From Okamejei kenojei (lineage: Eukaryota): a stretch of DNA of 64,000 bases. The notes beneath the pieces are model-generated. The model saw only the letters and a list, made by a program, of their open reading frames with translations. It was not told where the DNA came from and did not search any database. Shown here in pieces: positions 20,401-64,000 of the stretch. The stretch is from the NCBI GenBank assembly GCA_035221665.1, contig CM069154.1, positions 5,890,001 through 5,954,000 of the forward strand, in the 5' to 3' direction. Both the position numbers and the translations under genes were made by a program. Within the stretch, counting starts at the first letter, position 1. Every line of letters begins with the position of its first letter.

Positions 20401-23400
20401 CGTGGTGTGCACTCATAATCCACATCACCACTTGCAGGGTCTGTCTTCTGCAGCCCTGATACACTTGGAATTATATCCAATGAGACTTCCTCCGCCCTTA
20501 ATCCTGGGTCTGGAGTTTCAAATTCCCAATTTGGCACATAGCCATATTCATTATATTCAAACCCCTCAGGGTCATTTTGGGAAACTTCTGGGTACTGTGA
20601 CCATTGTCTCATTATATTTTGGAGCACTTTCTCCATATGTTCCATTTTAAGCCATATAGCTTTATTATCCGGAGGACTTTCGTTATCAGAGTCATTATCC
20701 GAAACCACGGGCCTCACGGATTTCTTTTTACTTTTTCTTGGAACATTTTCCTCCATGGTTTGCATTTCTGGAGAAATTATAGTCTCACTAACGGGTGAAT
20801 CAGCGGCCACCGGTATCGGAACCGGATCCGCACTAATCTCTTGTCCCGACTCTTTAGCTTCTCCCCGGGATGATCTTTTTACCCGCAAAACTTTCCTTTG
20901 AGACTTCTCCATTTTTCTTTTTTATTATCTGGCTCAATCAGTACGCCAGCGTGACTCTGATTTTAACTTTTACTTTCTCTTTTGCTGGTTCTACCAGCAT
21001 AACGTCTTTTTTAGAACGTCCCCACTTTCTTTGCTACTTACCTGCGGGTCCGTTCCAGCCACTGCGAGGAGCTGTGCTCTGCAGCTCTTGCTTCTGCCGT
21101 CAGCATCGACGTAAAGCCGTTCTAGCACCAGGCGGGCCTTCTTCACGTAGTCACTCACGTGACTCCGAAGTAAAATAGGCTTCCGTAAACTACCCCAAGG
21201 GTGTAGGATAGAACTGGTGCACGGGTAATCGTTGGTCGGCTTGGACATAGTGGGCCGAAGGGCCTGTTCCTGGCTGTATATCTAAAACTAACTAATTGTC
21301 ATGTTGCATTTAATGAGCTGTGAGAATATTCTCCAAGGTCCTTCTGTTCCCCCACACTCCCTCAACATCCATGTATTAATGTCTTTATTTAGATCTCTTT
21401 GTTAAATGTAATTCCTCTCACTTCTCTGGATTAAACGGTCTTTGACACTTTTCTGCCTTACTGATTTGTCCATCCATATCTGCCCTGTGGTCAAAAGCCT
21501 TCTTCTCCCTGACAACCATACAGCTGATCTTTGTCTCATCTGCAGAGGACTTCGCCATGCCCCCTACATTTATCTACATCAATGATTCTTGCTATTGAGG
21601 GAGAGCAGCGTAGCTTTACAAGGTTAATTCCCAGGATGGCGGGACTGTCATATGCTGAGAGAATGGAGTGGCTGTGCTTGTATACTCTGGAATTTAGAAG
21701 TATGAGAGGGAATCTTATTGAAACATGTAAGATTATGAAGGGTTTGGACATGCTAGTGGCAGGAAACATGTTCCCGATGTTGGGGGAGTCCAGAACCAGG
21801 GGCCACAGTTTAAGAATAAGGGGTAAGCCATTTAGAACGGAGACGAGGAAACACAGAGAGTTGTCGGTATGTGGAATTCTCTGCCTCAGAGTGCGTGGAG
21901 ACCCATTCTCTGGAAACTTTCAAGAGAAAGCTAGATAGGGCTCTTAAAGAGTCAGGGGATATGGGGAGAAGGCAGGAACGGGATACTGATTGGGGATGAT
22001 CAAGCATTATCACATTCAATGGTGGTGAGGGCTCAAAGGGCCGAATGGCCTACTCCTGCACCTATTGTCTGTTGTCTATTGATGAGTACTGAGGCTTGTG
22101 GATCCCTACAACAACCTCATCCCCAAAATGCACAAATATTATTGGCCTGTTTTATGGAGGGTAAACCTCATGAAAACATCGGACTGGCTGCGGACGCTAC
22201 AAATAGGCCCCGACCTCGGGTGGACTATGAGGAGGAGGAGGAGGAGGAGGAGAACTAGACTTTTTTGGCGCCTTCCCTCACAGTGGATTCTGCTGTGGGG
22301 GCCGATTCATGTTGATTCCTATAGCGTATTGTGTCTTTTTTCTTTTTTCTTTTATATGGTGTATGGAAATCTAATTTCTTCTCTGTAAAGCACTTTGGCT
22401 TCAACGTGATTTGATTTAAAAGTGCTATATAAATAAAAATTACTTACTTACTTATTTATGGGTAATATTTGCCATCTCCCCCATCTATAAACTAGGAAAT
22501 AGTCACCTACATTTCACGCTGCTTTGCAAGGCCACCAGCATAATCATGGAGCAGTTTCATCCCAGTCACTCCTTCTTTACCTGTCTACCGTTAGGCACAA
22601 GGTACAGAAGTTTGAACCCAATGCTCCAGATTCAGAGACAGTTTTCTTCCCAACTGTTATCAGGCAACTGACCCATCCTCTCACTAGCTAGAGCGAGTCC
22701 TGACCTTGTATTTACCCCCTTGAACAATCAATAATTGGACTCAAACTAAATTAAACTAGTAAAGCAATGATCCTAGATTGATCTGGTGAATGAAGACAGT
22801 CAATGTTGGCCTTCACCCATGCATCTAAGCATCAGTGATAATATTTAAAAAATAATAACTTGGTAACAAGAAATTATTGATATTGCATGCTGATGACTTT
22901 GACAAATATGCATAGTTATAGTCCAAGAACAAGAAGGAAATGGCTACTTATTGCAAGAGCAACCCTAGGCCCAAGAGGAACTGAGATGTCAACTAATTTA
23001 ATATCTGAACTTTAAATAAGAGGAAGTGTTGTAAAATGGAGACATTGTAAATTGTTTTGGCATTATTGCTTGGCTGCTGTTAGTGAGTGCAAGCAAGCAA
23101 TGAAACAATATTTTATGAATAGAAAGGGTTTCTTTGCACTTTGACACTGTTACTTTAGTTTAGTTTAGTTTAAGACATTTTAAGATAGAGCATGGAAACT
23201 GGCCTTTCGGCCCAACGTGACCGTGCTGACCTGGTATCTTGCACACTAGGGACAATTTACATAGTCCTTATTCCCTATTTAAAGAGGCCAATTAACTTAC
23301 AAACTTGTGCGTCTTTGGGATGTGAGTGGAAACCAGAGGACTGGGAAAAAACCCACAGGGAGAAAGTACAAACTCCGTACAGACAGACCCCTTAGTCAGG

Positions 23401-29232: not shown

Positions 29233-29508
29233 CTAAGAAACAACAGAGGCATAAATTGTCTCAGAGTTCTCTGGAGTCCCAGTAGAGTGGGGTTTCCGAA
29301 TGCCCTTTGGGCAGTTGCGATGAAAATTGACATCTGCATAGACAACAGCATTGTCAGTCACATGGTGCCTTGATCTCGACTTCCTTTGACAATTCACCAC
29401 TGCGTACGTGATTCCACCTTCATTGTTATCCAAATGGTCAGGTGCCCTGTTGTTTCCAAGTTGCTGCAGATTTGAATAAACGTGGTTCCCTTCCAACACT
29501 GCCATTTC
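29233..29508 (-). CDS. Gene B terminal exon with ITIMs (ITYAVV, VVYADV), ITSM (TIYASV) and a YSNL tyrosine
   Basis: ttacattttag| phase 0; ORF 29233-29505 ends in TAG; motifs fit (I/V/L/S)xYxx(L/V) and TxYxx(V/I). Confidence 0.9.
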   Translation of the reverse strand, partial: EMAVLEGNHVYSNLQQLGNNRAPDHLDNNEGGITYAVVNCQRKSRSRHHVTDNAVVYADVNFHRNCPKGIRKPHSTGTPENSETIYASVVS

Positions 29509-32500
29509 CTAAAATGTAACAAAATTCAATTTTACAACCTAATATATCTGATGGGTGCTCAACAGATGTCTATTGCAAAATAGGTCTCAAAGTGTTCAGT
29601 GTACAGAACAAGCCATTGCTGCTGTTTACAGCACAAAGATAGTGCAGCAATGTGGAGCAATGATAGAGTTGCTGCCTAACAGCGCCTACAACAGGTTAGT
29701 AGGTTAATTGGTTTGGCATAATAGCAAATTGCCCCTAGTGTGTGCAGGATAGTTTAGTGTGCGGGGGTCACTGGTCGGGGTGGACTCTGTGGGCCCAAGA
29801 TCCTGTTTCTGCGCTGGAGTGGACTGGTGTTGCTAAATGGCCTGTGTATACACACATAATTCAATATTATATATTCTTCATCACTCAGATAATTTATATT
29901 TCACGTTTTTACCTGGATGTCATTGTTCTCTTCACCGTGTGATGTATTGCAATTGGATTCTGGAAAATATGTTGTCAATAGGGCCATATCAGGAACGGGT
30001 TTAAACATCATTCATTCATATATTTCATTCATTTGTTCTATGTACCTTCTATATCTCTCATTTCCCTTTCCCCTGACTCTCAGTCTGAAGAAGGGTCTCG
30101 ATTCGAAAAGTCACCCATTCCTTTTCTGCAGAGATGCACCCTGAACCGCTGAATTGCTTGAGCATTTTGTGTTTATCTTCAGTATAAACCACCATCTGCA
30201 GTTCCTTCCAATACACTGAAACATCTACGTGTTGTTTCCACGACATTATATTTAGGAGAACCCGAAAAGTACTGCTGTATATTTGCATGAACGGAGCAAA
30301 AATCTGTCCTGTTGTTCTGGTTACTGTACATATTGTTCAGAATGGATCATATTCCCTCTGCTCTACCCATCCCTCCCGAAAGCTGCCTAAACCTACTTGA
30401 TCTCCTGGTTGCTCAACCCTTTAACTACCATTCTCATTCCCACACTAACATTATTGTCCTGGGCCTCCTCCGTTATCAGAGTGAGGCCCAGCGCAATTTG
30501 GAGGAACAGCACCTCATATTTCGCTTGGGCAATTACACCCCAGTGGTATGAATATTGACTTCTCTAGCTTCAAGTAGCCATTGCTTTCCCTCTCTCTCCA
30601 TCCCCTCCCCATTCCCAGCTCTTTGTCCAGTCTTACTGTCTCCGACTACATTGTATCTGTGTACTACCCACTCCCCTGACATCTGTATGAAAAGGGTCTT
30701 GACCCGAAACGTCACACATTCCTTCTCTCCAGAGATACTGCTTGTTCCGTTGAGTTACTCCAGCATTTTGTGTCTATCGTCCTAAACTTATCTGCTCCAG
30801 CAGGTTTTCATAAGTTCAGTAAGTGATAGGAGCAAAATTATGCTATTCGGCCCATCCATCTAATCCACAATTTATTCATGGCTGATCTATCTCTCCCTCC
30901 TTACCTCTTTCTCCTGCCTTCTCTCTACAATCCAGGACACCTGTACTAATCAAGAATCTATCTAGCCATCTATGCCTTAAAAATATCTATTGACGAACTC
31001 CATGGCATTCTGTGGCAAAACATTCCACAGATTCATCACCCTGTGACAAAATAAATTCTTCCTCATCGCCATCCTAAAGGAATGTCCTTTAAATCGGAGT
31101 TATGACCTCTGGCCCCAGACTGTCCCAGTAGTGGAAACATCCATTCTACATCCACTCTATCCAGGACTTTCACTATTTGATGTTTCAATGGGTTCCCCCC
31201 CTCTTTTCCCTCTTACCCTGTTGTAATAGATCTTGGATCTGAAATATTTACTGTTTTACTTTCCACTAATGCTCTCTGACTGAGAAAAGCTCAGTGAACT
31301 TTCACATTTTCATCGGCGGTGGAGATAGTTGGTAGCTTCAAGTTCATGGGTGTTGACATCTAGGATTACCTGTCCAGGCTAGACCTACCCTGCCTCAACT
31401 ACCTCCTCTGGCAGCTCCTGCCATATACCCATCGCCCTCTGTGTGAGGCAGGTATGTTGTACATTGTCTATGTCCCTGTGAGGCTGCAGGCGTGATCTTC
31501 ATTGTAACTGTACTTCATCATGCTTGTGCATGTGACAATAAACACGACTTAACCTGATTTGAAATACAACAGCTAATCACAGAAAGCATATTCTAACAAC
31601 TGAGAGGATGGGAGTATATATGTAAATCTTACTTCCACCTGGCCTCTTAGTTCTCACACATCTCTGCCATTTCACACTCAGACAGTTTCTGTACGGTGAT
31701 GTTAAAAGAACAGTTTATGTCACCGAGTCATCATGATAGCATCAAACATGATAGCATTATTGATCATTCATGCCTCCCTCCTACATTTTAATTCATTAAT
31801 GCTGGGCATTTGTTGATTACAACAGAATAAAAATATCTTGACATTCTGCAAGGAACTGAGACATGTATTGCGAAATTATTTAAGGGAAATCTGAAACTCA
31901 CCCTTGGATTTACGCTTTCGGTACCAAAGGAAGGCAATGATGAGAATCAGGACAAACACAGTGACACCAGACACAAATATGTAAGTGATCCTGTTGGACA
32001 TAGAATAGGGAAGGGTGAGATATGGCTCATCATTGATTCTTGGCCTTTAGTAAAGAACAAAAGTCAAGCATTCATATGGCACCTTTCATACATTTTTTGC
32101 AGTGTGCAACAAAGGAAATGAAGTGTAGAGTCGGTGGGTAATGCAGCAGCTAATCTGCTCACATTAAGATGACATTGACCAATGATCGTGAAACTGGTTG
32201 AAGATCAATTGCGTCCAAACATTAAGGAACAATGGATGGGAACCGTAACACTTTTATTGCAATGATTACTTTAGTTTAGTTCAGCTGAGTTTGGTTTAGT
32301 TTAGTTTATATTAGTTTAGTTTTTATTTGAGTATAACTTTCAAAATGTAAACCCTAACCCTAACCCTAACCCTAACCCTAATTCTATAAAAGATTTCAGG
32401 AGTTAATGGTCCCACGATTACTTAAATTATATAGTTATGCTTTTACTGAAAATAAATTACCAGAAACTTTAGCAGAATCTACAATTACGATTATACCAAA

Positions 32501-35500: not shown

Positions 35501-38500
35501 GTCACGTTCTAGGTGGAGAAACGTTCCTGCTGTTGGAGTGACTGACATTGAGACACTGACCAACTCTGCAAGGTGTTGCCATATGTGATATCAAAGGTGG
35601 TGTTTTAGACCAACATTCACTATGCATTTTCCTATCAGTACCACACCAGAACAGGTCATAGCAAGGCAAAGCAGCAATACTTGTGTTTGGCAACTTTACT
35701 CATCTCACACCATGGGATGAGGTTAGCAATGGAGAATACCATTGGTGAATACCTCAGGGAATGCCCTCTGAAGGGCAACAAATGGAGGAATCTGTTCTTA
35801 TCACCCAAGCATATACACAACACATTGAGATATAATCCAGTGCAATTTCCCTTCTGGTGAGTTAACTAATATCTGGTTTGCAAGTTATATATGTATTATT
35901 ATAGAATAAGGTCATAAGGAATACGAGTAGAATTAGGGAATTTGGCCCATCAAGTCTACTCCGCCATTCAATCATGGCTGATCTATCTCTCCCGCCTAAC
36001 CCCATTGTCCTGCCTTCTCCCCATAACCTCTAACACCCGTACTAATGAAGAATCTAGCTACTTATGCCTTAAAAATATCCACTGACTTGGCCTCCACAGA
36101 ATTCTGTGGCAAAGAATTCCATAGATTCACCACCCACAGACTAAAGGAATTTATCCTCATCTCCTTCATAAAAGAACATCTCATTCTGAGGCTAGAACCT
36201 CTAGTCCTAGAATCTCCCACCGGTGGAAACATCTTCTCCACATCCACTCTACCCAATTCTTTCACTATTCTGTATGTTTCAATGAGGTCCCCCATCATTC
36301 TTCTAAACTCTTGTTTAGAAGAATGTTTGAGAGATAAATTTATCTTTTAATGTCAGTCTTGAAATATGTACAAAGGCATTGGTTATGTTTCCTGATATTT
36401 GGGTTCATCGGATCCATAGAGAAACACAGTATGGAAACAGGCCATTTGGTCCTTTATGTCTGCGCTGACCATTAGCCACATTCACACAAATGCTGTGGGA
36501 AGAAGAGTGGTCTAGATAGTTGTGGGAGTCAGTAGGTTTATAATAGACATCAGTCGATAGTCTTTCTCCTCTGGTGAAGACAATGAGATCGAGAAAGGGG
36601 AGGGAGATGTTGGAGATGGTCCAAGTGCATTTGAGTGGCGGATGGAGAGCAGGAGACCATTCTCTCTGCAACCCTGCTGAATGGCTCAATTCTACTCCTA
36701 TTCCTTATAACATTATGACCTATACTTCCCTGGTTATCTCATTCTTTCCCATCCAAACCACCTCCTCCCCAATATCTTCCCCTTCAACCATAGGAAATGC
36801 AACATCTGTCCCTATACCTCCTCCCTTGACTCTGTCCAAGGACCTCAATTATCCTTTCGGGTTAGAGTTAATTTGAACCTCCTCCAACCTCATCTACTGT
36901 ATGAGGTGTGGACTCTTATACATCAGCAGGACCAAACGTTGACTGGGCGATCATTTCACTGAACATTTAGCTCAGTCCTCCTCTCACTATATGATCTCCC
37001 AGTTGCTAAACACTTTAACTCCCTCTCCCATTCCCGCACTGACCATTCTGATCTGGGCTTCCTCCATTGTCAGAGTGAGGCCAAATGCAAATTGGAGGAC
37101 CAGCACCTCATACTTCGCTTGGGCAGCTAACTGCACAGCAGTATAAATGTTGATATCTCTAACTTTAAATAACCCTTGCATCCCCTCTCTCTCTGTCTCT
37201 CCCCCACCCTAGTCGTTGTATGCATTTCACTGTTGTCTTGTAGTGTCATATTGTCTGTGCAAACCGTTTTCACCTAGTCCACAGTTAACAATGGATCTTT
37301 TCCTTGATCATTGTTACTTTTTTGCATATGTTTCATTCATTGTTTTATACCTTTCTATATCACCGTCGATATCGCTCTCGTTTCCCTTTCCCCTGACTCT
37401 CACTCTGAAGAAGGGTCTCAACCTGAAACGTCACTTATTCCATTTCTCCAGAGACGCTGACTGACCCGACGAGTTACTCCAGTTGTTTGTGTCTATATTC
37501 AGTTTAAACCAGCATCTGCTGTTCCTTCCTACACAATGAAAGGCAAAATATGCAGAACACACATAGACGGCACCTAAGTTCAGGGTCTTGGCATTGTGAG
37601 ACTGTGGTTCCACTGGTTGTGCCACTGTACATACAAATCAATACTCCAACTGGCCTTTAATGCCAGTGAATGGAAGATACAACTTTCTCTCAATTGAAGC
37701 AATCCCAATCAAAACACCAGTAATTAGTACATCATTCATTGGAAACAGAGTAGTTTACCTTGAAGATAGACAAAAGTGCTGGAGAAACTCAGCGGGTGCT
37801 GCAGCATCTATGGAGCGAAGGAAATAGGCAACATTTTGAGCCGAAACCCTTCTTCAGACCCACCATCAGTCTGAAGAGGGGTGTCAGCCCGAAACGTTGC
37901 CTATTTCCTTCGCTCCATCGATGCTGCCGCACCCGCTGAGTTTCTCCAGCATTTTTGTCTACCTTCGATTTTCCAGCATCTGCAGTTCATTCTTAAACAG
38001 TTTACCTTGACGTATACTTGGATCTTTTCGAAGTTTCACAAGAATATTCAAGTCCTGTTGGAACAAGGAAATAAAAATCATTTCACTGCTTTTCACTTGC
38101 AGTTGAACAAGAGAGCATGCTTGTCCGATGTAAGGAGTTTATAGGCAATGTTTCTTCAGTGTAATTTACAGCAAATGGGAGATGTTGTCATGATAAGCCG
38201 GAGCACTAGTTACAACTCAGGTCGGCAACAGTATGGCGGCGCAGTGGCACAGTGGTAGAGTTGCTGCCTTACAACGAATGCAGCCCGGGTTCGATCCTGA
38301 CCACGTATGGAGTTTTTACCTTCTCCCCATGACCTGCGTGGGGTTTCTCCGAGATCTTCGGTTTCCCCCCACACCCCAAAGACGTACAGGTTTGTAGGTT
38401 AAATGGCTTGGTAAATGTAAAAATTATCCCTAGTGAGTGTAGGATGGTTAATAATGTGCGGGGATCACTGGTCATCACCGACCCAGATGGCCGAAGGGCT

Positions 38501-41500
38501 TGTTTCCGCGCTGAATCTCTAAACTAAAGACGTGCAGGTTTGAAGGTTAATTGGCTTCTGTAAATTGTCCCTTAATTTAGAATTGCCCCTAATTGTAGAA
38601 TTGGTATACCGGTTAAAGGCAGCTGTTTCAACGCTGGATCTCTAAACTAAACTGGATAGATGGGGTTTTATTCCACACAGGAGAGGAACGAGGAAGCTAT
38701 TACAGGTATGCAATGCTATGAGGGACATAGATAGGGTACTTTGTGGAAAATCAGCATAGCAGATGTGCGTAGAAGTGGAGAACATTGGGTTGGGTTAGGG
38801 AGTAGAATATTCGGAGGGTATCTGAGCAAGAAATATTTTTAAACCTAGATGGTGGGGGCACTTGAATTGTCAAGTCTGAGAAGACTGTGGATGAGGGGCT
38901 GGTAAAAATGGGATAAGTATCAATGGTACTTAATGGTAACACAGTGTACCAAAGCTGATAGTGTCTAGGAGTTAACTGTGGCCACATCTATGGATAATTT
39001 CTGTTCCCTTCCCACATTTGAGCGTCGGTCATGTGGAGATGATGGAAAGTGAAAGTGCTTGGACTGATGTCACTGCAAATCTATTTTAAAGCTGTGCAAA
39101 CATAAGAGGAAGTTCTAGCCGGGAAGCTGGCCTACACCAGCACTGGGAAATCTATTTCTGGAGCTCAGCAACCAAGTATTGTCAAATGGGCCATAATTCC
39201 ATCATTTTAATCTCGATAAGTTATTAAATAAGTGCATGGATTTTAGGATGTCGGGGATTATGCGGAGAAGGCAGGAGAATGGGGTGAAGAGGGGATGATA
39301 GATCAGCCATGATTGAGTGTTCTATTTATGCTTCTATCACGTGATCTTATGAACCACCCCATCCCCAGTTCCCCTTCTTGTCCTCATTCCCTCCACTACT
39401 TACCAGTGCTGTTGATTTTCACCAGAAAGCTACAGGGAACGTCACTGCTGGAAATGGACACGTTGACCATTTCACTGGATTTTGATCCACGTTTATTTGA
39501 GGCTGTGCAATAATATTGATGGTGCTGGTGTTTGAAGGATTGACAATGTAGGTCTAGGGCATTGTTGTCTGAGATATCTGAATCCACAGATGGGGTCTTT
39601 TCATGCCAGGTGTAGCTAATGGGAAGGGAACCCCGGACCGACTCACAGGACACTGTCACTGAGCCCCCAAGACAGGAGACATTGGCTGGTGACAGAAATA
39701 CAAGCGCAGGAACAGACATGGGTTCTGTTGGAAAGGAGCAAACAGTCAGACACTGAGTGAACATCTGAAAATCAAACACTCGCCAATATCCACCATCTCT
39801 GTATCTTAGCCAAAGCCGGCAGGTTGGAATCTGACCCATCCATCTACATAGAAGTCATACAGTGTAGAAACAGGCCCTTCGGTCTAACTTGCCCGCACTG
39901 ACCAACACGCCCAATCTGCACTAGTTCCCCACCTGACCTTTCTTGGCCCTTAACCCTCTAAACTTATCCTATTCATGTACCTGTCCAAATTTTTCTTAAA
40001 TGTTGCAAGAGTACCTGCAATAACTACTTCCGTCGGCAGTTCGCTTCATCTACCTACCAACCTTAGTGTAAAAACGTTACTCCCCAGCCACTTGATAAAT
40101 TACTCCACCCTCATCTTAAATCTATGTCCTCTGGTTCTTGATTCCCCTGTGTATGCACAAATGCATTTATGAAGTAAATCGACAGGGACTCACTCCAGTA
40201 CAGATAAGGACAATGTCCCAGCTCAGATATTGCATTTCAAAGCGACAGCCAAATTGCCTGTCAGAAAGCTCCTTCTCCTCACAATCCATTTACAGATATG
40301 TACATCTCTGTGTCTCTCCATCCTCCCAGCAGCCAGAACAACCATGTCTGCCACTGTACCAGTGCACAGCAGTACCATCTCTATTTGTTTTGTATTTCCA
40401 GCATCTGCAGTATTTTTAATCTGAAACTCTGCCACAAATCTACAATACCAACATTCAAACACTTCATTAATGCAACATTATCACTATCAACAACTTTTTA
40501 ATTTCCTTGTATAAAATTGTTGATAGTGATACTGTTGCACTAATGAGACGTGTGAATGGCGGTATTGTAGAATTGTGTGTAGGGAGCGAATGGGAAAGTG
40601 GAATAACATAGAACTAGTGTGACCGGTGATCGCTAGTCGGTGTGAACTCATTGGGCCAAAGGATCCGTTTCCATGTTGCATTTGTAAACTACAACTAACT
40701 ATCCGGGTGAACCTTTTCTGTAACCTCTCCAAACCTCTCACATCTTTTGTTTTATAAAGCGGGGACCAGAACTGTGCACCAGACTCCCACCTAACAAATG
40801 TTTTGTGTGGATGCCAAAGTGGAGACATCAAGTCACTCGCTGAGAAACCTACCTTCAGATACTTGGAGATGTACTTTAAATGTTGGTTCGCCAGATGTAG
40901 TAATTCCACATCTGTACCATCCTGTATCTCCAGAGCAAAGATCCTCCACTGTCACAGTAAATATTCCTCGTGCCGGGTTATCTGTGATTGACACTCTTCC
41001 GCTCTGTCCATGTTTCCCATTTGTTTCCACTACATGTGTACACTGGCGACTTGTCCCAGGGCACCAGTATTTTGTGTCTGAGTGGTACACTGCTGCATAG
41101 TGACAATCGATTGTGATTGCTCTTCCCACAACCCCTCTTACTTCGCTCTCAGCCCACAGTGCACCTGAAACTGAAGGAAAAATCTTTCATAAATTGAAGA
41201 GCAAAATTTGCCTTTCACAAACATATACATTATAGTATACATCAATGTGTACATGGCAGTCTGCCCTATCATTTTCTTAACTGTGTTGAATTCTACCTAG
41301 ATTGCGATGAGAGACGGATACTGTACACCGTCCCTCACCAACTGCACAGGCCATTCCAAAGTGCTTCCAAGCCAATGTGGGTGTGAATGGTGAAGAATAA
41401 TGCATTGAACACGGAGCCTGGTGCAATTGGAAGGCGCTGTCTAGGGAGTCTTGGTGAGTTGCTGCAGTGCATTGTGCAGATGGTGCAAACTGCTGCTGCT

Positions 41501-44500
41501 CTGCATCAGTGGGGGAGGTTGAAGATGGGGTGTCTGTCAAGCGCGATTCTGGGTCATGACAGACCAAGCACAAGTGTTCAGCGAAACTGTGGTCTAGGCC
41601 AGTGCTTCTTAAACTGATGAATGGTTCAAAGGGTGAATGAAATTATTTTGGGGTGAATTTGTTAATTGATGTTTTTTGCTCATGTGACAAAATAAATTAT
41701 ATATACAATTATACACAAGGGAGAATAAGATGAAAATTACCAAAAAAAACATAAGAAAATTTAGTCGAAGGGTGAATGAAATTTTGTGCTAAATACACAA
41801 GGGTGAATGACACTGAAATATTTTAAAAAGAAGTGGCCTTGGCTGCGCTTGGTCTCGCCGATGTAAACCATTTACGCTCTCTTATGGACTTCCAATCAGA
41901 GCATCTCCACACCTACTGCGGGTTTCATTTAAAATTCTCTTTGACAAAAGTAAGGGTCATACTTGATGGAGTGACGGCCAAGCAGATTCACTTTAATTAT
42001 GTGAGATTACTGGAGTTCCAGTGATTCACGCAAATTAACAGTTAAAATCATGAACATTATCATGAAATTGTACATAATAATAATAATAAAAATATATTTT
42101 ATTGTCATTACACATAAGTGCAACGAGATTTGTTTTGCAACTCCATCCGATGTCATAACTTAAACGACTAATAAAATTTAGGTTTAGATACCCCGAGAAC
42201 AAGATTTGTGAAAAGAACATTAGAACAGTAAAACAGTCAAAACCAAAACAGACTAAAGTGCAGATGTGTCTGTGCGACGTGACCATCCAAGGGAGACAGT
42301 CCATGGGGGGGGGGGGGGGGGGTACTCAGCAGGACAGGTTCAGAGCCGCTATAGCTCTGGGAATGAAGCTGTTCCTGAGTCTGGAGGTGCGGGCATAGAA
42401 GGCCTTGTAGCGTCTGCCAGAAGGGAGTAGTTCGAACAGTCCATTACAAGGGTGAGAGGAATCTTTATGGATGCTGACGGAGTTCCTCAGGCACCGTGTG
42501 TGGTAGATGCCCTCCAAGGCTGGTAGCGGTGTCCCAACAATCTTTTGCGCTCTGTGGACGACGCGCTGAAGAGCTCTCCTCTCTGCCTCCGTGCAGCTGA
42601 GATACCACACAGAGATGCCATACGTTAGTATGCTCTCTGTCGTGCAGCGGTAGAAGGTCGTCAGCAGCTGTTGGGGCAGACCAGTCCGTTTCAATGTTCT
42701 TAGGAAGAACAGTTGTTGCTGTGCCTTTTTGACCAGCGCAGCAGTGTTGGTCGACCATGTGAGGTCCTCTGAGATTCGTGGTTATAAATGATCATGGATC
42801 CAAATAGAATACATTTGGTTGCTTTCTCTTTCTCAAAGTGACTGTGAGATCTTAAGTGGCAGCTAGAGAATCATTTTTAAAGCAGAAGGCAGTAACTTGA
42901 TGGAATGCACTCAATGCGTTGTGATAAGTGCAGATCTTTCTCTCCTTTCGAAGCTCAACACCTCCCAGGTGAAAGCAACAGGCAATTATTTGCCAGTTCC
43001 CCAAACACTCTCGCATTTTACACCATGAGCTCACGGTAGCTGTAATGATGCCGTCTGCAAATACCAAGAAACCCATGAACATCACCACAAGGAGATTAGC
43101 AGCAGGTTCAGGGACTCTAGAGGAATTGTGAAACAGTATTCCCATGGGAAAATAACACTCACCTGCATTGTTCATTTCTGTCACATAACTGCACGTTCCT
43201 GCTCCTTTGAAGACTTTCACGTTGACAATGTCACTAGATTTTGTCTCACCATAATTAGAGGCTGTGCAGTAATATTGACGGTGTTGACCTCTGAGGATTT
43301 CACAACTCAGATCCAGTTGATTGCCAGACGAGATCCTTGAACACCCATACTCTTTCTTCTCACACCATGTGTAATGGATGGGAAGGGATCCACGGACAGA
43401 CTCACAGGACACTGACACTGAGCCTCCGAGACGTGAGGCATTTGCTGGTGACAGATATCTGAGCACAGGAGCAGACACGGGTTCTGTGGGAATGGAGCAA
43501 ACATTCAGTCACTTGTATGAACAGTTCAAAACCAATCACATGCTAAATCTCAGCAGCCCTTTATCTCAGCCCGAACCGTCCGGTTGATATCTCAACGGCT
43601 CATCTACATCTCTGTGAGTGTGCGAAGCCCAGAAACTGAAGAAGGTTAGAGTTGTAGAGAAACGAAAGAGGCCCATGACCAAACATGCCACTGCGGTAAA
43701 TGACACCTTACTAATCCCCCCTCTTTAAATAGTTTCCATTACCTCTGTCCTCCACTTTCTCATCCCGCACATCATGGGAAAATGAACATGCTTCTCGTGA
43801 TTGATACATTTCTCTAAGTTCCTTGCTCAATCATTTCCACAGCAAGGAATAAAGTCTTAGTTTGTCCAATCGCTCTCTGCATCAATCGCATCCTGTCCAG
43901 GCAGCGTCGCCCTAAATCCTTTCTGGACGCTGTCCACCTCAAAGGCATTTTTCTTGGAGCTGAAGATCTAAAGCTGAACACAATTCCCAAAGTGCGGATT
44001 CAACATCTGCACGTCTGAAGCTTATTATCTCAAATTATGTTCTGAATGTTCTCACTGATGAAGACCAGCGTGCAAAAAACCCTATTCAATGCCTTGGAAT
44101 TTAAAGGCGAAAACTAATTACGATCGCTTTAAGATAGACACAAAATGCTGGAGTAACTCAGCGGAGCAGGCGGCATCTCTCAAGAGAAGGAATGGGTGAC
44201 GTTTCGGGTCGAGACACTTCTTCAGCCTGAGAGTCGTGGGACAGGGAGAGAGAGAAATGGAAGGGTAAGATGTGAAAACAAGTCATCAAAGGTGACAAAG
44301 TTAAAGGAAATTGTAGAATGAATCATTGTCGACTGAAGGGAAGGTGACAACGAGGCATACAATCAGTAAAATAGAATCAGGGTGACAGTGAAACTAAATG
44401 GAGAACTAGGATGGAGGCAGGATGGAAAGGAGTAAAGCAAGGGTTACTTGAAGTTCATTGTTTTAACCGTAGTGACAAGGCCAGCTGCTTTAAATACCTG

Positions 44501-47500
44501 GGAGTCCACATCACAGAGGATCTGACATGGACAACACACACTGCCACACTGGTGAGTAAGGCATGGCAGTGCCTTTACCACCTCAGACAGCTGAGGAAAT
44601 TCAGAGTCTCTCTGAGAATCCTTCAGTGCTTCTACTCTGGGGCTATAGAAAGCATCTTGTCCGGCAACATCACAATCTGGTTTGGGAACAGCTCTGCCCA
44701 GGACAGGAAAGCTCTGCAGAGAGTAGTGCGTTCGGCCAAACGTACTATGGGAACTACACTCGCCCCCCTGCAGGACCTTTTCACCAGGAGGTGCAGATCC
44801 AGAGCCAGCAACATTATGGGGGACCCCTACCACCCCAACAACGGACTGTTCCAGCTGCTAAGGTCAGGCAAACGCCTCCGCTGTCATGCTGTGAAAGCAG
44901 AGATGATGAGACGGAGTTTCTTCCCACAGGCCATCAGGACTGTAAACTTATCTCACCAGGGACTCATTCACTGTCCTAATTTACTATTGTGTTGTGGCTT
45001 AAAAAAATAATCTCTTCTAACATGTAAATACTGAATCTGTTTCATTCCATTCTATTCTGTACTTTGTGTGCAATCCGCAGGCATTGCCACTTTCATTTCA
45101 CTGCATATCTTGTATGTGTATATGACAAATGAAGTTACTTGTCTTGTCCCCTGTCGCTCAAAACACTAGGTTGTAAGCTGCCCAAGTGAAATATGAGGTG
45201 CTGTTCCTCTAATTTGCCTTTGACCTCACTCTGACAGTGGAGGAGGTCCAGGACAGAAAGGTCAGTTTGGGAATGGGAGGGGGAATTAAAGTGTTTAGCA
45301 ATCGGGACTTAGCGTAGGCCGAGGCAGACTGAGCGGAGTTGTTCAGCGAAACGATCACCGAGTCTGTGCTTGGTCTCGCCGATATATAGGAGTTCACACC
45401 TGGAACAGCCAATATAGTTGACGAGGTTGGAGGAGATGCAAGTGAACCTCTGCCTCACCCGAAAAGACTGTTGGAGTCCTTGGACAGAGTAGACGGAGGA
45501 GGTATAGAGACAGGTGTTGCATCTCCTGCAGTTGTAGGGGAAGGTACCTGGGGAGGGGGTGGTTTGGGTGGGAAAGGACGAGTTGACCAGGGACTTGTGG
45601 AGGGAACGGTGTCATCGGAAAGCAGAAAGCGGTTGTGATGGAAAGATGTGGCTAGTGGTGGGATCCCGTTGGAGGTGGTGAAAAAGTCGGAGGATTATGT
45701 GCTGTGTGCGACGGCTGATGGGGCGAAAGATTTGTTTATTGTGCTCCCCACCAGGGAAATATCCGGGCAGAGAGGCTGGCTGGCTAGCTGCCGGGCGGTG
45801 GGTGGACAGTGGCTGCTGGGGGTGTGGGCACATTGAAACATAAAACGTAGAAAATAGGTGCAGGAGCAGGCCATTAGGCCCTCCGAGCCAGCACCACCAT
45901 TCATTGTGATCATGCTGATCATCCGCTATCAATAACCCAGGCCTGCCTTCTCCCCAAATCCCTTGACTCCACTAGCCCCTAGAGCTCTATCTAACTCCCT
46001 CTTAAATCCATCCAGTGATTTGGCCTCCACTGCCCTCTGGGGCAGAGAAGTCCATAAATTTACAACTCTTTAGGTGAAAAAGTTTTTTCTCACCTCAGTC
46101 TTGAATGACCTCCCCTTTATTCTAAGTGTGGCCAGTGGTTCTGGACTCGCCCAACTTTAACCATATAACCATATAACAATTAATACCATATAACCATATA
46201 ACATTAACCATATAACCATATAACAATATAAAATATAACCATATAACCACATAGCAATTATAATAACTTTGCGAACATTTTTCCTGCATCTAGCTTGTGC
46301 AGTCCTTTTATAGTTGTATACCTTTCTATAAGACCCCCCTCAACCTTCTAAACTCTAGTGAATACAAGCCTAGTCTTTTCGAATTTTACTCATATGACAG
46401 TCGCGCCACCCCAGGGATCAATCTCGTGAACCTACGCTGCACTGCCTCAATCACAAGGATGACCTTCTTCAAATTAGGAGACCAAAACTGTGCACAATAC
46501 TCCAGATGTGGTCTCACCAGAGCCCTATACAACTGCAGAAGAACCTCTTTATTCCTATACTGAAATCCTCTTGTTATGAAGGCCAACATTCCACTAGCTT
46601 TGAGGGAGAGAGAGAGGGCGCGCAGAGTGGGGAGCGAGCGACTGATCCCAGAAGTGTGGGCGGGGGCGGGCTGGCCGTCCCCGGGAGGACTGAACGCAGT
46701 CTGTTGAGCTCTGGAGACCATGTTTATGATTCTCCGGGTACTCAGACCGCGAGCAACATTTGTTTCTCACGGATCTGTCGGATAATTAGCTTGAGTCGGA
46801 ATGCAAACCTCTGACAGGGTGATATTTCATACAGTTAAGTGGCAAGGTAATGTGCTGAGCTTCCCAGTTGAAGTGGGTGGCCGCTCAGTGGGACAGAGCT
46901 CGCCCTGGGTGAGAGCAACATGAGTGGGGTTTCCCGACCCCCGCCCGCTCCCCGCAGGTCTCTGCACTGCTGCGGAGCCTCGGGATATCGGTGTTGCCCT
47001 GACCCTTCCCGGAGAAAACATGGATCAGGCATTTCAGTGGAGATGTCAAGTCAATCGCTGCGAAATGTACCGTCAGATACTTGGAGATGAACGTTAAATG
47101 TTGGATGGTCGGCAGATGTTGTAATTCCACAACGGTACCATCCTGTATCTGTAGCGTGAAGATCCTCCACAGTCACAGTAAATATTCCTCGTGCCGGGAT
47201 ATCTGTGATTGACATTCTTCCACTCCGTCCGTGTCGCCCACTTGTTGCCACTGCACACCGTTTCCTCCTCCAATCACACCAGTATTTTGCGTATGAGCGG
47301 TACTCTGCTGCATAGTGACAATCGATTGTGATCGCTCTTCCCACAACTCCTCTTACATCCCTCTCTCCCCACACTTCACCTGAAACTGAGAGGAGAAACT
47401 TTCAGATGGAGACCAAATGAACTGTTTAATGGAAATAGATATATTTTGAAGATTACAGGAAATAAAACTTAAATCGTTGCATGATGTGTCATATTGCTTC

Positions 47501-48516
47501 ACGACCAATGTCTCCGGTCTGAAGTGCAGGCAGTGCTGTTATTGTACCTGTTGTGTCAGTGTTCTGACCCCGGGTCAGTACAATTAGGGTTCACTTCCCA
47601 CTCCAGATCCCTGAGCAGAAACTGGACTGGGACCGCATTGCGGTACTGAGGGAGCGCGGCAGTGTTGCAGCAGCTGCCTTTCAACAATCCCAGGCGGTGC
47701 CCGGCCTCTCACCCTACAGATAGACCCCACTTTGCTATTTCATTGGAGGTGCCGCCGACTCCGCTGCCAACATTCATCTCTCAACCGATGGTGGGCCGGA
47801 CCCGTGTTTAGACATTCACTGCCTTTACAACGCCCTGACTGAGGACAGAGGACGGACGGCTTACAATAAAGCGGGTCCGTTACCGGAAAGCGATAGGAGC
47901 GTGAAAACTCACAGCGCCAGATTTGGGGACAATTTTGTTCCCAGCTGTTATCAGGAACCCGAATCGTCCTACCATAACAGAGAGCTGTGCTGAACTTCTT
48001 TGTACCTCTTTGATGACACTCGGACTACCCTTGATCGGACTTTGCTGGCTTTACCTTACACTAAACGTTATTTCCTTTTCGTGTATCTATGCACTCGATT
48101 GTAATCATATATTGTCTTTCTGCTGGCTGGTTAGCAGGCAACAAAAAAGCGTTTCACTGCACCTCGGTCCACGTGACAATAAACTAAACTGAATTGGGAG
48201 CCAAATGTCCCGCTGCTCATCGGGGACAGGTTCTGATTCTCAATTTAAACTATCATCAGGATGCAATTAGGCCATGTGACAACAGTGGTTAAACTACGAA
48301 CATAGTCTAGTTATTCAAATGTGATTTCAGATCCATTACCACAATGCACTGGTTTTATTTCCTCCATTACATGTCCACACACACTTAACCATCTCTGCTG
48401 TAGAAAGGGTGCACGGGACCCCAACTAACATCGATTATTGGAATATCAACATCTGGCTTTCACTCACCGGGCAGCGAGGAGATGAGAAGAATGGGAATCC
48501 ACATTGTTTTATCCAT
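29233..48516 (-). CDS. Gene B: inhibitory Ig receptor, leader-V-C2-V-C2-hinge-TM-tail with ITIM/ITSM (~590 aa)
   Basis: Nine phase-compatible GT-AG exons give one open frame when the 56-nt exon is skipped or corrected. Confidence 0.85.
29913..29959 (-). CDS. Gene B penultimate cytoplasmic exon
   Basis: attttccag|...CAG|gtaaaa, 47 nt, phase 1-0; SNCNTSHGEENNDIQ. Confidence 0.82.
31633..31688 (-). other. Gene B candidate cytoplasmic exon, 56 nt, out of frame as assembled
   Basis: Good acceptor (ttttaacatcaccgtacag) and donor (gtaag); phase-1 entry gives ETV-stop; one more A in the initial A-run would give ENCLSVKWQRCVRTKRPGG in frame. Confidence 0.5.
31902..31990 (-). CDS. Gene B transmembrane exon (uncharged TM)
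   Basis: tgtccaacag|...G|gtgagt, 89 nt, phase 2-1; ITYIFVSGVTVFVLILIIAFLWYRKRKSK. Confidence 0.88.
32352..32381. repeat. Interstitial telomeric repeat (CCCTAA)5 at the L1 5' junction
   Basis: Five perfect vertebrate telomere hexamers directly abutting the L1 coding sequence. Confidence 0.9.
32382..35005 (+). mobile_element. 5'-truncated L1-clade LINE (fish-type), AT-rich, decayed
   Basis: YRAISLLNTD, DQTGF, LDAEKAFD, RQGCVLSPLLF, LYADD, FSGYRINWNKS; A-rich tail 34979-35005. Confidence 0.92.
36495..37532. mobile_element. Rearranged Penelope relic
   Basis: TDVYYKPTDSHNYLDH on - strand; GIY-YIG remnant and terminal repeat on + strand. Confidence 0.75.
37764..37998. mobile_element. Palindromic non-autonomous Penelope-derived element with 12-bp TSD
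   Basis: ~100-bp inverted arms; agtttaccttga at 37752-37763 and 37999-38010; absent at the paralogous site ~62800. Confidence 0.85.
38006..38054 (-). CDS. Gene B hinge exon
   Basis: ttgttccaacag|...AG|gtaaac, 49 nt, phase 1-2, GLEYSCETSKRSKYTS; paralog at 62806-62854. Confidence 0.82.
39404..39724 (-). CDS. Gene B C2-type Ig exon 2
   Basis: ctttccaacag|...G|gtaagt, 321 nt, phase 1-1; VSCESVRGSLPISYTW..YYCTASN. Confidence 0.9.
40853..41170 (-). CDS. Gene B V-set exon 2
   Basis: ttccttcag|...G|gtaggt, 318 nt, phase 1-1; begins VSGALWA; KYWCPGTSRQC, DTGWYRCG. Confidence 0.92.
41600..41835. mobile_element. hAT-Charlie-like MITE
   Basis: Starts CAGTGCTTCTTAAACT, degenerate right TIR, imperfect 8-bp TSD gtctaggc/gccttggc, internal aagggtgaatga repeats. 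Confidence 0.65.
42068..42780 (-). mobile_element. Rex1/Babar 3' fragment
   Basis: FYRCTTESILTYGISVWY..LPSGRRY; (TTA)n tail. Confidence 0.88.
43163..43483 (-). CDS. Gene B C2-type (FCRL/PECAM-like) Ig exon 1
   Basis: cccacag|...G|gtgagt, 321 nt, phase 1-1; EPVSAPVL..VSCESVRGSLPIHYTW..YYCTASN. Confidence 0.9.
44131..45720 (-). mobile_element. Penelope relic interrupted by Rex1
   Basis: Terminal repeat with hammerhead motif 44198-44225; GIY-YIG remnants 45170-45720. Confidence 0.8.
44485..45146 (+). mobile_element. Rex1/Babar 3' fragment inside a Penelope relic
   Basis: FKYLGVHITEDLTW..IESILSGNITIWFGN..RRSFFPQAIR. Confidence 0.88.
45835..46600 (-). mobile_element. CR1 3' fragment containing a tail-repeat insertion
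   Basis: LYRALVRPHLEYCAQFWSP; CR1 3' UTR at 45835-45930. Confidence 0.85.
46159..46264. repeat. (AACCATAT)n reiterated LINE-tail insertion
   Basis: Flanked by aacttt direct repeats (46153-46158 and 46265-46270); unit equals the tail at 5498-5520. Confidence 0.8.
47071..47385 (-). CDS. Gene B V-set exon 1
   Basis: 315 nt, phase 1-1; AITIDCHY..KYWCDWRRKRC..DTGWYRCG..VHLQVSD. Confidence 0.93.
48468..48516 (-). CDS. Gene B exon 1, signal peptide (MDKT)MWIPILLISSLP
   Basis: ATGs at 48516 and 48504; donor G|gtgagt, phase 1. Confidence 0.88.
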
Positions 48517-58813: not shown

Positions 58814-61800
58814 CTGCAAAAGATAATGTGAAGTCATCAGTCTCATTTGACCCGACCGCTCCCAACACAATGCTATCTGGAAGATGGACCCCAACAAATC
58901 CACACAGGGCACTGAAATCCACTCTGCACACGTGCAACCTGGCAAAACCTCGTGATATCATCTGCATTGAGATTTGGTTTAACTTCAGGATATGAAACCA
59001 TGCATGGTTTTTGTTTCTATTAATGGACAGGGTATTTGAAAGCATTAATGGAAACCGTTTGGATACATTCGGCGATGAAATGTGATTGCTTTGGTCAGGG
59101 GTGTTGAATCTATGGATTTCATTCCCACAGGAGGCTGTGGAGGCCAAGTGAATTCACACTGGAGATGCTGCCTGTCTCACTGAGTTACTCCAGCATTTTT
59201 GTATGTATCCAAATCAATTGATATTTTTAAGGGGGAGATTTTGATATTCTTGATAAATAAGGATGTCAATGGTTATGGGGAGAAGGCAGGAGAATGGGAT
59301 CGAGAGGGAAGGATAGATCAGCCATGATTGGGGGCGGATTAGATATGATGGGCTGAATGGCCTAATTCTGCTCCTATCATTTATGACCACGATGACAATA
59401 AAACCTACCTTAGAGCCTCTTGTGAACACCGCAGTTGAGATACTCCAGATCACAAGCAGGAGAAAGAGCAGCCAGCGCCCCACTCTCCATGAGATGTAAC
59501 TGGGCAGAGGGCAAGAGATACAGAATCAATGGGAGGAAATTAGACGGTTTATCTTTGAAGCATTTACCTGTTATTTGCTTCATAATCTTGGTGAAGTGGA
59601 GCGGGGCGAAGCAGCAGAGTAAATGGAGATCATCTTGGAGAAAGAATGGGTGTTAGACGTGAGGGGGGGTCGGGGGTTGGGGTGGGGGGGGGGGGGGACA
59701 ACTTATGATCACCAATTATTGACCTCATTTCTGGGGCATGGCTACAAGACTGGGTATGAGCGACTACGCAGTTAAATGGATTCGGAGAAGACCGAGAAAT
59801 AACTCTTGAGATGGAGCAGTGAATCAAGTGAATACAGAGTAGATAGACACAAAATGTTGGAGAAACAGCGGGAGAGGCAGTATCTCTGGAGAGAATGGAG
59901 GAAGATTGCAACCTTCACGTGGTCCGCCCTGTTTCGACTAGTGCAATCAACTCGACGTGCACAAATGGAAGATCAATTAGAACAAGTTGTCCAACAACTT
60001 TAGGCTGTGCACGCCACACGAAAGAAGAAGAAGAAGAAGACTGGGAATCACGGGAGAGGGAAAATGGGGATGTGGAAGGATACAAAGAACAGTGTAATAC
60101 CCTAGAAGAATGAAAATCCAGCTGCAAGGAAGAATATGGATAGACAGGAATAATAAAAATGGATCAATTCTAATGATAGAAGGGAGGTGGGGAATAAATA
60201 TGGAAACGGATGAGGCCAATAAATGAAATAAATTAAAAATGATAATGCATAATCTCACACTGGATACTTCTTGGATTAATGCGGTAGGTGTGTGCATGGA
60301 GGAAATGTGTTCGAAAAATCGGTTAAAGGCTCGCTCATAACGTGGTTTTGATGAACATTCTTATTTCCTAACGCAAGCGTAACGCAAGAGTGTGATAGGA
60401 AGTCAGATCTATTTCAATTGTAATAAGATAAATAACAAAGTGTTCACACTTTCATGACTATATTATGATTGAATATTTAATGGTTTCAAGTTTCAACGAG
60501 TAAAATAGCGTCAGTTAACTCATTTTGCTGTATTCGGTCTGATTCAAGACTAGTTTGTCACATTCTGCGCCAGTGATTTTAGGGTGTTTAACCCCATCAG
60601 TTGCAAGGTGTTGCCACACGTGATATCAAGGGGGGTGTCTTCGCCCATAATTCACAATGCATTTTCCTATCAGCACCACACCAGAGCAAGTCACAGCAAA
60701 GCTAAACTGCAACACTTGGGTTTGGCAACTATGTTCATCTCACAGCATGGGATGAGATTAGTGATGGAGGTCATGGTGAATACCGCAGGGAGCACTCTCT
60801 AAAAAGCAGCAAATGGGGGAACATGTTCTTATCATCCAAGCATGTGCACACCACAATGACATGTAAACCCAGTGCGATTCCCCTTCTGATGAGTTAACTA
60901 ATAACTGGTTTGCACGTAATATTTATTTTATTAAAGAATATTTAAAAGATAAATTTATATTTGGTGTCAGGCTTGAAACATGTACAACAATTGGTATGCT
61001 TCCTACTATTTGGGTTAATTGGATCAAAGACCTGTAGAGAAACACAGTAGAGAAATAGGGCACACAAAAGGCTGGAGAAACTCAGCGGGTGCAGCAGCAT
61101 CTAAGGAGCGAAGGAGATAGGCGACGTTTCGGGTCGAGACCCTTCTTCAGACTGGTCAGGGATCAGGGAAACGAGAGATATAGACGGTGATGGGGAGAAA
61201 TTCAATGTTCAAGCCCAGAGGATGCAGACTCCCCAAGCGGAATATGAGGTGCTGTTCTTCCAACTTGCGGTGTTGCTCACTCTGGCCGTGGAGGAGGCCC
61301 AGGACGGAGAGGGCGGATATGGAATGGGAGGGGGAGTTGAAGTGCTGAGCCACCGGGAGGTCGGCTTGGTTATTGCGGACCGAGCGGAGGTGTTCGGCGA
61401 AACGATTGCCAAGCCTCCGCTTGGTCTGACCGATATAGATCATCTGGCATCTGGAGCAGCGGATGCAGTAGATGAGGTTGGAGGAGGTGCAGGTGAACCT
61501 CTGTCGGACCTGGAAGGACTGCTTGGGTCCCTGAAAGGAGTGGAGGGGGGAGGTGAAGGGACAAGTGTAGCATTTCTTGCGGTTGCCCGGGGAAGGGGTA
61601 GAGCGGGAGGGAAGGGAAGAATTGACAAGGGAGTTGCAGAGGGAGCGGTCTTTGCGGAAGGCAGACGGCGGGGGGAGATGGCAAGATGTGGCGAGTGGAG
61701 GGGTCACGTTGGAGGTGGCGAAACTGGCGGAGGACTATGTGTTGTATTTGCCGGCTGGTGGGGTGAAAGGTGAGGACCAGGGGGACTTTGCCCTGTTTGC

Positions 61801-62854
61801 GAGTGGGGGAATGGGGAGAGTGGGCAGTGTTGCGGGGTATGGAGGAGACCCTGGTACGAGCCTCATCAATAGTGGGGGAGAGGAATCCCCGTTCTCTGAA
61901 GAATGAGGCCATTTGTGATGACCTGGTGTGGAACACCTCATCCTGGGAGCAGATGCGGCGTAGGCGGAGGAATTGGGAATAGGGGATGGAGTCCTTACAG
62001 GAAGCAGGGTGGGAGGAAGAGTAGTCCAGGTAGCTGTGGGAGTCAGTTGGTTTGTAGTGGATGTAGATCAGGAGTGTATCACCTGCAATAGAGATGGTGA
62101 GGTCAAGGAATGGTAGGGAAATGTCGGAAATGGTCCAAGTGTATTTGAGTGCCGGATGGAAGTTGGTGGTGAAATGGATGAAGTCGGTCAGTTGTGCGTG
62201 GGTGCAGGAGGTGACACCAAAGCAGTCGTCGCTGTAACAGAGGTAGAGGTCGGGGATGGGTCCCTGGTACGCCGAGAACAAGTATAGTTCGACGTACCCA
62301 ATAAAAAGGCAAGCGTAGCTGGGGCCCATGCGTGTGCCCATAGCTACGCCTTGTGTTTGGAAATAGGGCATTTGGCCGTTTCAGACAAATGCATTCACAT
62401 GATTCCTGTGTCAATCCTATCTTTATTTTCCCTACTTTCACATCAACTACCACTACCGTCCAACACCCTCCCTCCCCGCCCCACCCCACCCATTCTTCAC
62501 AGATTCAGCCGCTCTCCTGTACACACGGGCAGCTTACAACTGGCATGTGTTTGGGAGCTGGAAGGAAACTGGAGAATTTAAATGAAACCAACACAATTAA
62601 AGGCTAATCATACAGACCACACATAGACAGCAGTACATGTCGTGGCGTTGTGAGGCTGAGGCTGTGCCACTGTGCCTCAGGTCAATACTCTCATGCATTT
62701 AATGCTAGTGAAAGGAAGGCACAACTTTCTCCCAATTAAAGCATTCCCAATCAAAACTCCAGCAATTAGTACATTGTAACTTTAATTGGAAACAGAGTGG
62801 TTTACCTTGCAGAGTAATTGGATGTTATCGAATTTTCACAAGAATATTCATGAC
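58766..62854 (-). CDS. Gene C 3' part: activating-type receptor (hinge, TM with Arg, short tail); Ig exons lie right of the window
   Basis: Three exons with phases 1-2, 2-0, 0-stop joined in frame: GHEYSCENSITSNYSA-SYISWRVGRWLLFLLLVIWSISTAVFTRGSK-RRDESELRHSTHDLQ*. Confidence 0.8.
59409..59499 (-). CDS. Gene C transmembrane exon with Arg at the N-terminal side of the helix
   Basis: ctcttgccctctgcccag|...AAG|gtaggt, 91 nt, phase 2-0. Confidence 0.82.
59901..60040 (+). mobile_element. Short Vingi/Ingi-like retro-insertion with (GAA)n tail
   Basis: ...gcacgccacacgaaagaagaagaag end, inside a Penelope fragment. Confidence 0.45.
61058..62355 (-). mobile_element. Penelope-like element: RT C-terminus, GIY-YIG endonuclease and terminal repeat
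   Basis: GVAMGTRMGPSYACLF, YKPTDSHSYLDY, NLIYCIRCSRCQMIYIGQTKRRLGNRFAEH, GLN. Confidence 0.93.
61123..61150 (-). ncRNA. Minimal type-I hammerhead ribozyme motif in the Penelope terminal repeat
   Basis: CUGAAGA-A-GGGUC-UC-GACCC-GAAAC-GUC: core boxes, 5-bp stem II, palindromic ACGU stem III; stem I weak. Confidence 0.65.
62806..62854 (-). CDS. Gene C hinge exon
   Basis: 49 nt, same acceptor and donor as 38006-38054, conserved EYSCE. Confidence 0.82.
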
Positions 62855-64000
62855 CTGTTGGAACAAGGAAATTAAAGTCAAGTTTCACTGCTTTTCACTT
62901 GCAGTTGAACAAGTAGGTATGATTTTCCGATGTAAGGAGTTGATAGGCTTAACAGACAGGGTAATGGTTCTTCCGTGTGATTTGCAGCAAATGGGAGATG
63001 TTATCAAAACAAGCAGGCGTGCTGGTAAAAAACTCTGGCGCCAGGTGTAGACGGCACGGTGGCGCAGCGGTAGAGTTGCTGCCTTACAGCGCCAGAGGCA
63101 AGGGTTCGATCCTGACTACGGATGCTGTCTGTACGGAATTTGTACCTCCTCCTTGTGACCGCGTGGGTTTTCTCCAAGCTCTCCAGTTTCCCCGCATTCT
63201 GAAGTCGTGCAAGTTGGTTGGTTAATTGGCTTCTGTAAATTGTCCCCACTGAACTAGTGTACTGGTGATTACTGGACGTTGTGTACTCAGTGGGCCGAAG
63301 AGCCTGCTTCCACGATGCATCCATAAACTAATCAAAAGGGTGAAATTTCACTTGAGAGGGGTATTGCTTGGGATGGAACATTACACTGATGGGGGGGGGG
63401 GGGGGGGGGCTGGATAGGGGTTTTATAAAATTCCATGCAGGACAAGTGAGGAAGGGGGAACCTATTACAGGTGTGCAAAATTGTGAGCAGCATAGATAGG
63501 GTATTTTTAGAACATATTGCATGACATATAGTATTGATAGTACTGAATGGTCAATATTAACACAGTGGACCAAATCTAATACCATCGTCAAGGAGATAAC
63601 TGTTGCCACATTTACAATAATATCTGATCCCTTCCCATATTTGAGTGATGGTCTTGTGGAGATGATGGGAAGTGAAAGTGCTTGGACTGATGTCACTGCA
63701 AACCTAGTTTAAAGCTGTGTAAACATAAGAGGAAGTTCTAGCCGGGAAGCTGGCCTACACCAGCACTGGGAAATCTATTTCTGGAGCCCAGCAACCACAT
63801 ATTGACCAATGGGCAATAATTCCATCATTTTAATCTTGATAAGTTAATTAAATAACGTGCATGGATTTCAGGGTGTTGGGGTTATGGGGAGAAGGCAGCA
63901 GAATGGGGTGAAGAGGGGAAGATAGATCAGCCATGATTGAATGGTTTATTTCTACTTCTATCACTTGTGATCCTATGAACCACCCCACCCCCACTTCCCC

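Follow-up and report, generated by a model that had tools for sequence, protein, structure and literature searches.

The DNA analysed here, a window of 64,000 nucleotides (G000:C24:5890001-5954000), lies within a cluster of about 450 kb of modular domain immune-type receptor (MDIR) genes. On the minus strand it carries a nine-exon gene (Table 1), whose exons when joined give a frame of 594 aa without a stop. All the exon boundaries proposed in an earlier, sequence-only reading of this DNA are real AG/GT splice sites on that strand. The same reading had described two V+C2 pairs in tandem behind one leader, four Ig exons of phase 1-1, a V2 exon starting with VSGALWA and an ITIM tail, and each of these was confirmed. 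Two tail motifs, ITYAVV and VVYADV, fit the ITIM consensus, and a third, TIYASV, ends the protein. The V1 acceptor is a tandem AG, with 47379 as the alternative first base, and the hydrophobic span of the transmembrane (TM) exon contains no charged residue.

Table 1. Exons and other features in and next to the window (window positions unless a contig is given)
Feature	Positions	Strand	Basis or remark
Leader exon, phase 0-1, encoding most of the signal peptide	48468..48516	-	Splice sites; its 16 residues equal residues 1-16 of MDIR3
V1, membrane-distal V-set Ig exon, 315 nt	47071..47385	-	Splice sites, Pfam, 74% to MDIR5 domain 1
Leader-derived scrap of 30 nt, non-coding	44456..44485	-	In the V1-C1 intron; missed by the earlier reading
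C1, internal-type C2 Ig exon, 321 nt	43163..43483	-	Pfam, tree, 83% to MDIR5 domain 2
V2, internal V-set Ig exon, 318 nt	40853..41170	-	90% to MDIR3 domain 4, 83% to MDIR5 domain 3
C2, membrane-proximal C2 Ig exon, 321 nt	39404..39724	-	87% to MDIR5, 83% to MDIR3
Hinge exon, short, one Cys, phase 1-2	38006..38054	-	Splice sites
TM exon	31902..31990	-	86% to MDIR3 TM
First cytoplasmic exon	29913..29959	-	Splice sites
Last exon: ITYAVV, VVYADV, terminal TIYASV, then stop	29233..29508	-	82% to MDIR3 tail
Second family gene, leader and single V	24537-24594, 13606-13926	-	Hinge near 11570, TM near 4865
Second family gene, last exon	G000:C24:5881891-5882169	-	Tail exon near 2445; whole gene is window 24594-2400 onward

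V1 and V2 both match the Pfam V-set model (E = 7.7e-12 and 2e-13), and C1 and C2 match Ig_3/Ig_2 weakly, under the curated cut-offs. Within the gene, protein identity is 70% between V1 and V2 and 56% between C1 and C2. The solved structures closest to V2 are those of pIgR and CD300f; the closest to C2 is FCRL5. Beyond the canonical pair, V1 and V2 each have two further Cys residues.

Several other features were seen in the window. The plus strand at window 40170-40290, within the V2-C2 intron, holds an inverted and broken cytoplasmic-tail exon fragment of another family member; comparable tail-exon fragments occur at four other sites in the cluster, and we read them as scars of inversion or rearrangement. 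The hinge-TM intron holds a LINE insertion, with a short (TTAGGG)n run next to it at window 32330-32390. For the second family gene (leader at 24594-24537), no C2 exon was found. On the minus strand, window 15577-21281 contains long ORFs of 346 and 697 aa together with recombinase-like fragments, which we take by their look to be a DIRS-type retrotransposon, and there is a LINE fragment at window 16486-17797.

The gene is a member of the skate MDIR family

MDIRs have a modular ectodomain of V-like and C2 domains in variable number. Searching longer proteins with the C2 protein sequence returned 131 matches, and the 120 that were listed are all named from sharks, rays or skates. Among these 120 are three clearnose-skate proteins, MDIR5, MDIR3 and MDIR2 (ABC86800.1, ABC86797.1 and ABC86796.1), whose domains we mapped as leader-V-C-V-C, leader-V-V-C-V-C-TM-tail and leader-V-C, respectively; they thus show the variable mixture of V-like and C2 domains that is also found here. 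The sequences of MDIR3 and MDIR5 are reportedly of cDNA origin, from Cannon et al. 2006. Identity is 81.5% (358/439) to the MDIR5 ectodomain and 82.2% (488/594) to MDIR3. As far as sequence goes, it is these two proteins that carry the argument for kinship, with 81-82% identity and with the same-position clades of C1, V2 and C2 described below. The V-C-V-C order is contained in 68 of the 120 homologues listed among the 131 matches, 28 being exactly V-C-V-C and 30 V-C, and these counts overstate the architectures, as most of the listed homologues are RefSeq predictions, some of which fuse neighbouring genes. Internal leaders in three of the models (P0021, P0049 and P0050) reflect merged neighbouring genes of this kind.

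The tail is of the MDIR3 type, and several tail types are present in the cluster, as expected of a multigene family with inhibitory and non-inhibitory members. According to PMC3031540, the MDIR V-like domain is related to CD300/TREM/pIgR, and the Pfam and structure matches place V1 and V2 in that kinship. We conclude that the gene is an intact member of the MDIR family. The novelty that had been claimed for its layout did not hold up: it amounts to a deposited MDIR5 ectodomain on an MDIR3-type tail, so that, judged from the deposited proteins, architecture and family were already known and the four-domain layout is not novel. The searchable literature says little on MDIRs (PMC6795676 does not mention them), and in databases most members go under 'pIgR-like' or 'uncharacterized'.

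Paralogs in the cluster

About 20 close V matches and 18 C2 matches lie at 5.87-6.30 Mb on the same contig. One paralog, on the plus strand at G000:C24:6244998-6265549 (L030-L032), reads L-V-V-V-C1-V2-C2-hinge-TM-ITIM tail and thus has six Ig domains on the same type of ITIM tail; in two of its V exons the first AG of the tandem acceptor is gone, so that splicing can use the second alone. In another copy, at 6277581-6283127, C1 is interrupted by a stop, and the TM is of the MDIR5 type.

The upstream neighbour L001 (G000:C24:5949409-5960520; window 59400-64000) is 95-98% identical in the ectodomain region. It is arranged L-V-C2-hinge-TM, C1 and two-thirds of V2 (the 5' part) having been deleted, and ends in an MDIR5-type TM without an ITIM tail; its last exon was not located. 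Thus, a two-domain form with a V1-like domain and C2 is encoded as a separate gene, by way of a genomic deletion. The L001 V is 96% identical in DNA to V1, with 12 nonsynonymous differences and 1 synonymous; for positive selection this comparison was not significant (Fisher p = 0.20, with approximate site counts). We infer that L001 and the ITIM gene resemble paired receptors, L001 being the possible partner.

Within the cluster, duplications, deletions and tail swaps visibly create ectodomain variety at the level of genes. The cluster gives a descriptive view of MDIR diversification and is of little discovery value, since family and domain order are already deposited. About 25 remoter V exons (30-42% identity to V2) were seen at G000:C24:5.11-5.84 Mb and C11:41.98-42.03 Mb; they are often paired about 1.2 kb apart and form a second, CD300/pIgR-like array adjoining the MDIR cluster.

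Use of the single leader

We consider it very probable that this is an intact skate MDIR gene in which all nine exons are joined to encode one 594-aa L-V1-C1-V2-C2-TM-ITIM receptor, predicted to be an inhibitory innate immune receptor. The sequence-only reading had seen in the VSGALWA start of V2 a hint that the leader might be used for either V. In this family the leader exon encodes one part of the signal peptide and the V exon the rest, so that the end of the signal peptide travels with every V exon that is duplicated. A similar start was present in 19 of 19 cluster V exons checked, several of them internal, and the internal V exons of MDIR3 and MDIR5 likewise keep a start of the VSGALWA type. 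By regular expression, the signal-peptide end was found in 96/147 internal V domains vs 77/113 first V domains. The VSGALWA start is thus a family-wide feature of V exons, and the hint drawn from it falls away; V2 would simply have retained the signal-peptide end that every V exon of the family encodes.

Splicing of the leader to either V at substantial frequency, giving L-V2-C2 or L-V1-C1 on one ITIM tail, nevertheless deserves weighing, and we think it unlikely. All four Ig exons are of phase 1-1, so skipping them is compatible with the frame; joined to the leader, V2 could supply the missing end of the signal peptide; and in related skates (little skate and Rhinoraja) the members of predicted isoform pairs (P0018/P0036 and P0023/P0045) differ by the skipping of whole modules. 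Minor isoforms may therefore occur. Against this stand, besides the family-wide signal-peptide end, the contexts in which such domains occur: of 24 domains sharing at least 82% identity with V2, 23 come directly after a C2 domain, one comes after a V and none after a leader, and none of 12 proteins with an MDIR3-type tail is leader-V-C2, the latter figure being limited by 90% clustering and prediction-based annotation. Moreover, C1 has an Arg in place of the Cys that is usual in membrane-proximal C2 domains and that co-occurs with a Cys in the hinge. This Cys is found in 101/137 terminal vs 51/127 internal C2 domains, counts that are not phylogenetically independent, and a putative disulfide between it and the hinge Cys can be proposed. 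The residue pattern suggests that C1 would not normally be joined to the hinge, which argues weakly against C1-to-hinge splicing, and its lack of the Cys is consistent with specialisation as an internal domain.

Four presumed-RNA runs, all of one study and from a relative, yielded for the repeat-poor C1-V2 stretch of a paralog only pieces less than 95% alike. Two of the runs had V-to-C joints among these pieces, and there was a single V-to-V join, so that other family members only were represented; neither a C1-V2 nor a leader-V2 joint was among them, which speaks neither for nor against these junctions. For the whole gene, the table of joints from the same four runs was swamped by repeats. 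Because no transcript of the gene was among these RNA runs of a relative, the C1-V2 junction rests on homologous proteins.

A more general proposal is that in MDIR3-type genes one leader picks either the fast-evolving distal V or the conserved internal V, producing four-domain and two-domain V2-C2 receptors; we regard this as improbable to the same degree. If true, leader choice would give an innate receptor family a repertoire at the splice level, with a V2-C2 form whose specificity is conserved and whose ITIM tail is that of the four-domain form.

The C1-V2 intron and the origin of the layout

The sequence-only reading had found no second leader in 41171-43162, and two comparisons agree: aligned to this interval the leader scored 18, vs 142 for itself, and blastn of the leader against it gave no match at E<=10. 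In favour of the single four-domain receptor, the six-Ig paralog retains C1-V2-C2-hinge-TM-tail with a C1-V2 intron of only 700 bp. One candidate, an ATG-started and GT-ended frame at 41405, was rejected as a leader; it is unlike the family leaders, and its local alignment to two paralogs stops short of its ATG.

The leader-derived scrap in the V1-C1 intron was likewise rejected as a leader, as its ATG is followed by three codons and then a stop. It is a near-copy (28/30) of the gene's own leader region and sits at one edge of a LINE-like insertion (about 44486-45150). A 7-bp direct repeat flanks the insertion, which together with the scrap spans window 44456-45150 and is absent from the paralog intron. 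Allowing up to 2 mismatches, only 4 genomic sites match the 30-mer: two are leaders and two are copies in introns. The scrap resembles filler, templated locally, at the junction of a retrotransposon.

Domain trees place each of C1, V2 and C2 with its counterparts at the same position. In trees of few columns with a midpoint root, the V tree being a quick version and the C tree lacking row G6213, whose coordinates as taken contained a stop, C1 falls with MDIR5 domain 2 and MDIR3 domain 3 into one skate clade (10 rows, 100/99). Another clade unites C2 with the membrane-proximal C2 domains of skates, those of MDIR3/5 included (14 rows, 98/89), and a third holds V2 together with MDIR5 domain 3 and MDIR3 domain 4 (12 rows, SH-aLRT 97). 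These clades take in rows from Amblyraja, Leucoraja, Rostroraja and Rhinoraja, and the C1-V2 junction is present in MDIR3, MDIR5 and four skate genera. Consequently, of the two origins put forward earlier, internal duplication of the V-C2 module is supported and recent fusion of two genes is not: the duplication predates the sampled skates. In the order of events that we infer from these trees, a phase 1-1 V-C2 module would have been duplicated in frame long ago, ahead of the divergence of the sampled skates, giving the present layout. Shark C2 domains form a separate clade (100/97) in which both copies of one gene are often sisters; this points to a separate duplication or homogenisation of shark V-C2 arrays, apparently independent of the skate expansion.

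Two tandem genes, a truncated L-V1-C1 and a V2-C2-TM gene with an unseen leader of its own, or a recent fusion unique to this genome, are highly improbable, for although the cluster is rich in rearranged pieces, some RefSeq models fuse neighbouring genes and the 41405 frame offers an ATG, that frame is unlike the family leaders, the C1-V2 intron has no leader similarity and the C1-V2 junction is common to MDIR3, MDIR5 and four skate genera, with positional clades.

Predicted function and comparison with known receptors

The product of the intact nine-exon gene would be a four-domain type I receptor. Of its domains, V1 diverges most between paralogs (71-74% protein identity vs 90-92% for V2), and this variable distal domain may bind the ligand, with the more conserved C1-V2-C2 serving as a stalk that holds V1 away from the membrane. 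CD300a/f bear ITIM tails, and their ITIMs recruit SH2 phosphatases. By analogy, the uncharged TM and the tyrosine motifs of the similar skate tail are predicted to recruit SH2 phosphatases and to inhibit. Lipids or immunoglobulins are candidate ligands by comparison with CD300 and pIgR only.

Among deposited proteins, clearnose-skate MDIR5 has the same leader-V-C2-V-C2 order, and its internal V begins VSGALWAESE, but it has another TM, of a type found in neighbouring paralogs here, and a short tail without ITIMs. Clearnose-skate MDIR3 shares the leader, C1-V2-C2, hinge, TM and ITIM tail, but has two N-terminal V domains (five Ig domains) instead of one (four). The little-skate RefSeq protein XP_055510908.1 ('pIgR-like isoform X2'; 593 aa, 81.9% identical) has the same complete domain order; it is a predicted model, and its N-terminal V is placed elsewhere in the V tree.

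The structure matches support the view that a CD300/pIgR-like V is joined here to an FCRL-like C2, and the layout is, as had been suggested, not a mammalian one; none of CD300, pIgR and FCRL is known to alternate V and C2. CD300 has a single V-type ectodomain, whereas the skate gene has four Ig domains; the extra Cys pair of the CD300 V domain has its counterpart in the two additional Cys of V1 and of V2, as read from the sequence. The pIgR ectodomain consists of V domains only, unlike the skate gene with its C2-type C1 and C2, and that of FCRL of C2-type domains only, whereas two V-set domains are present here.
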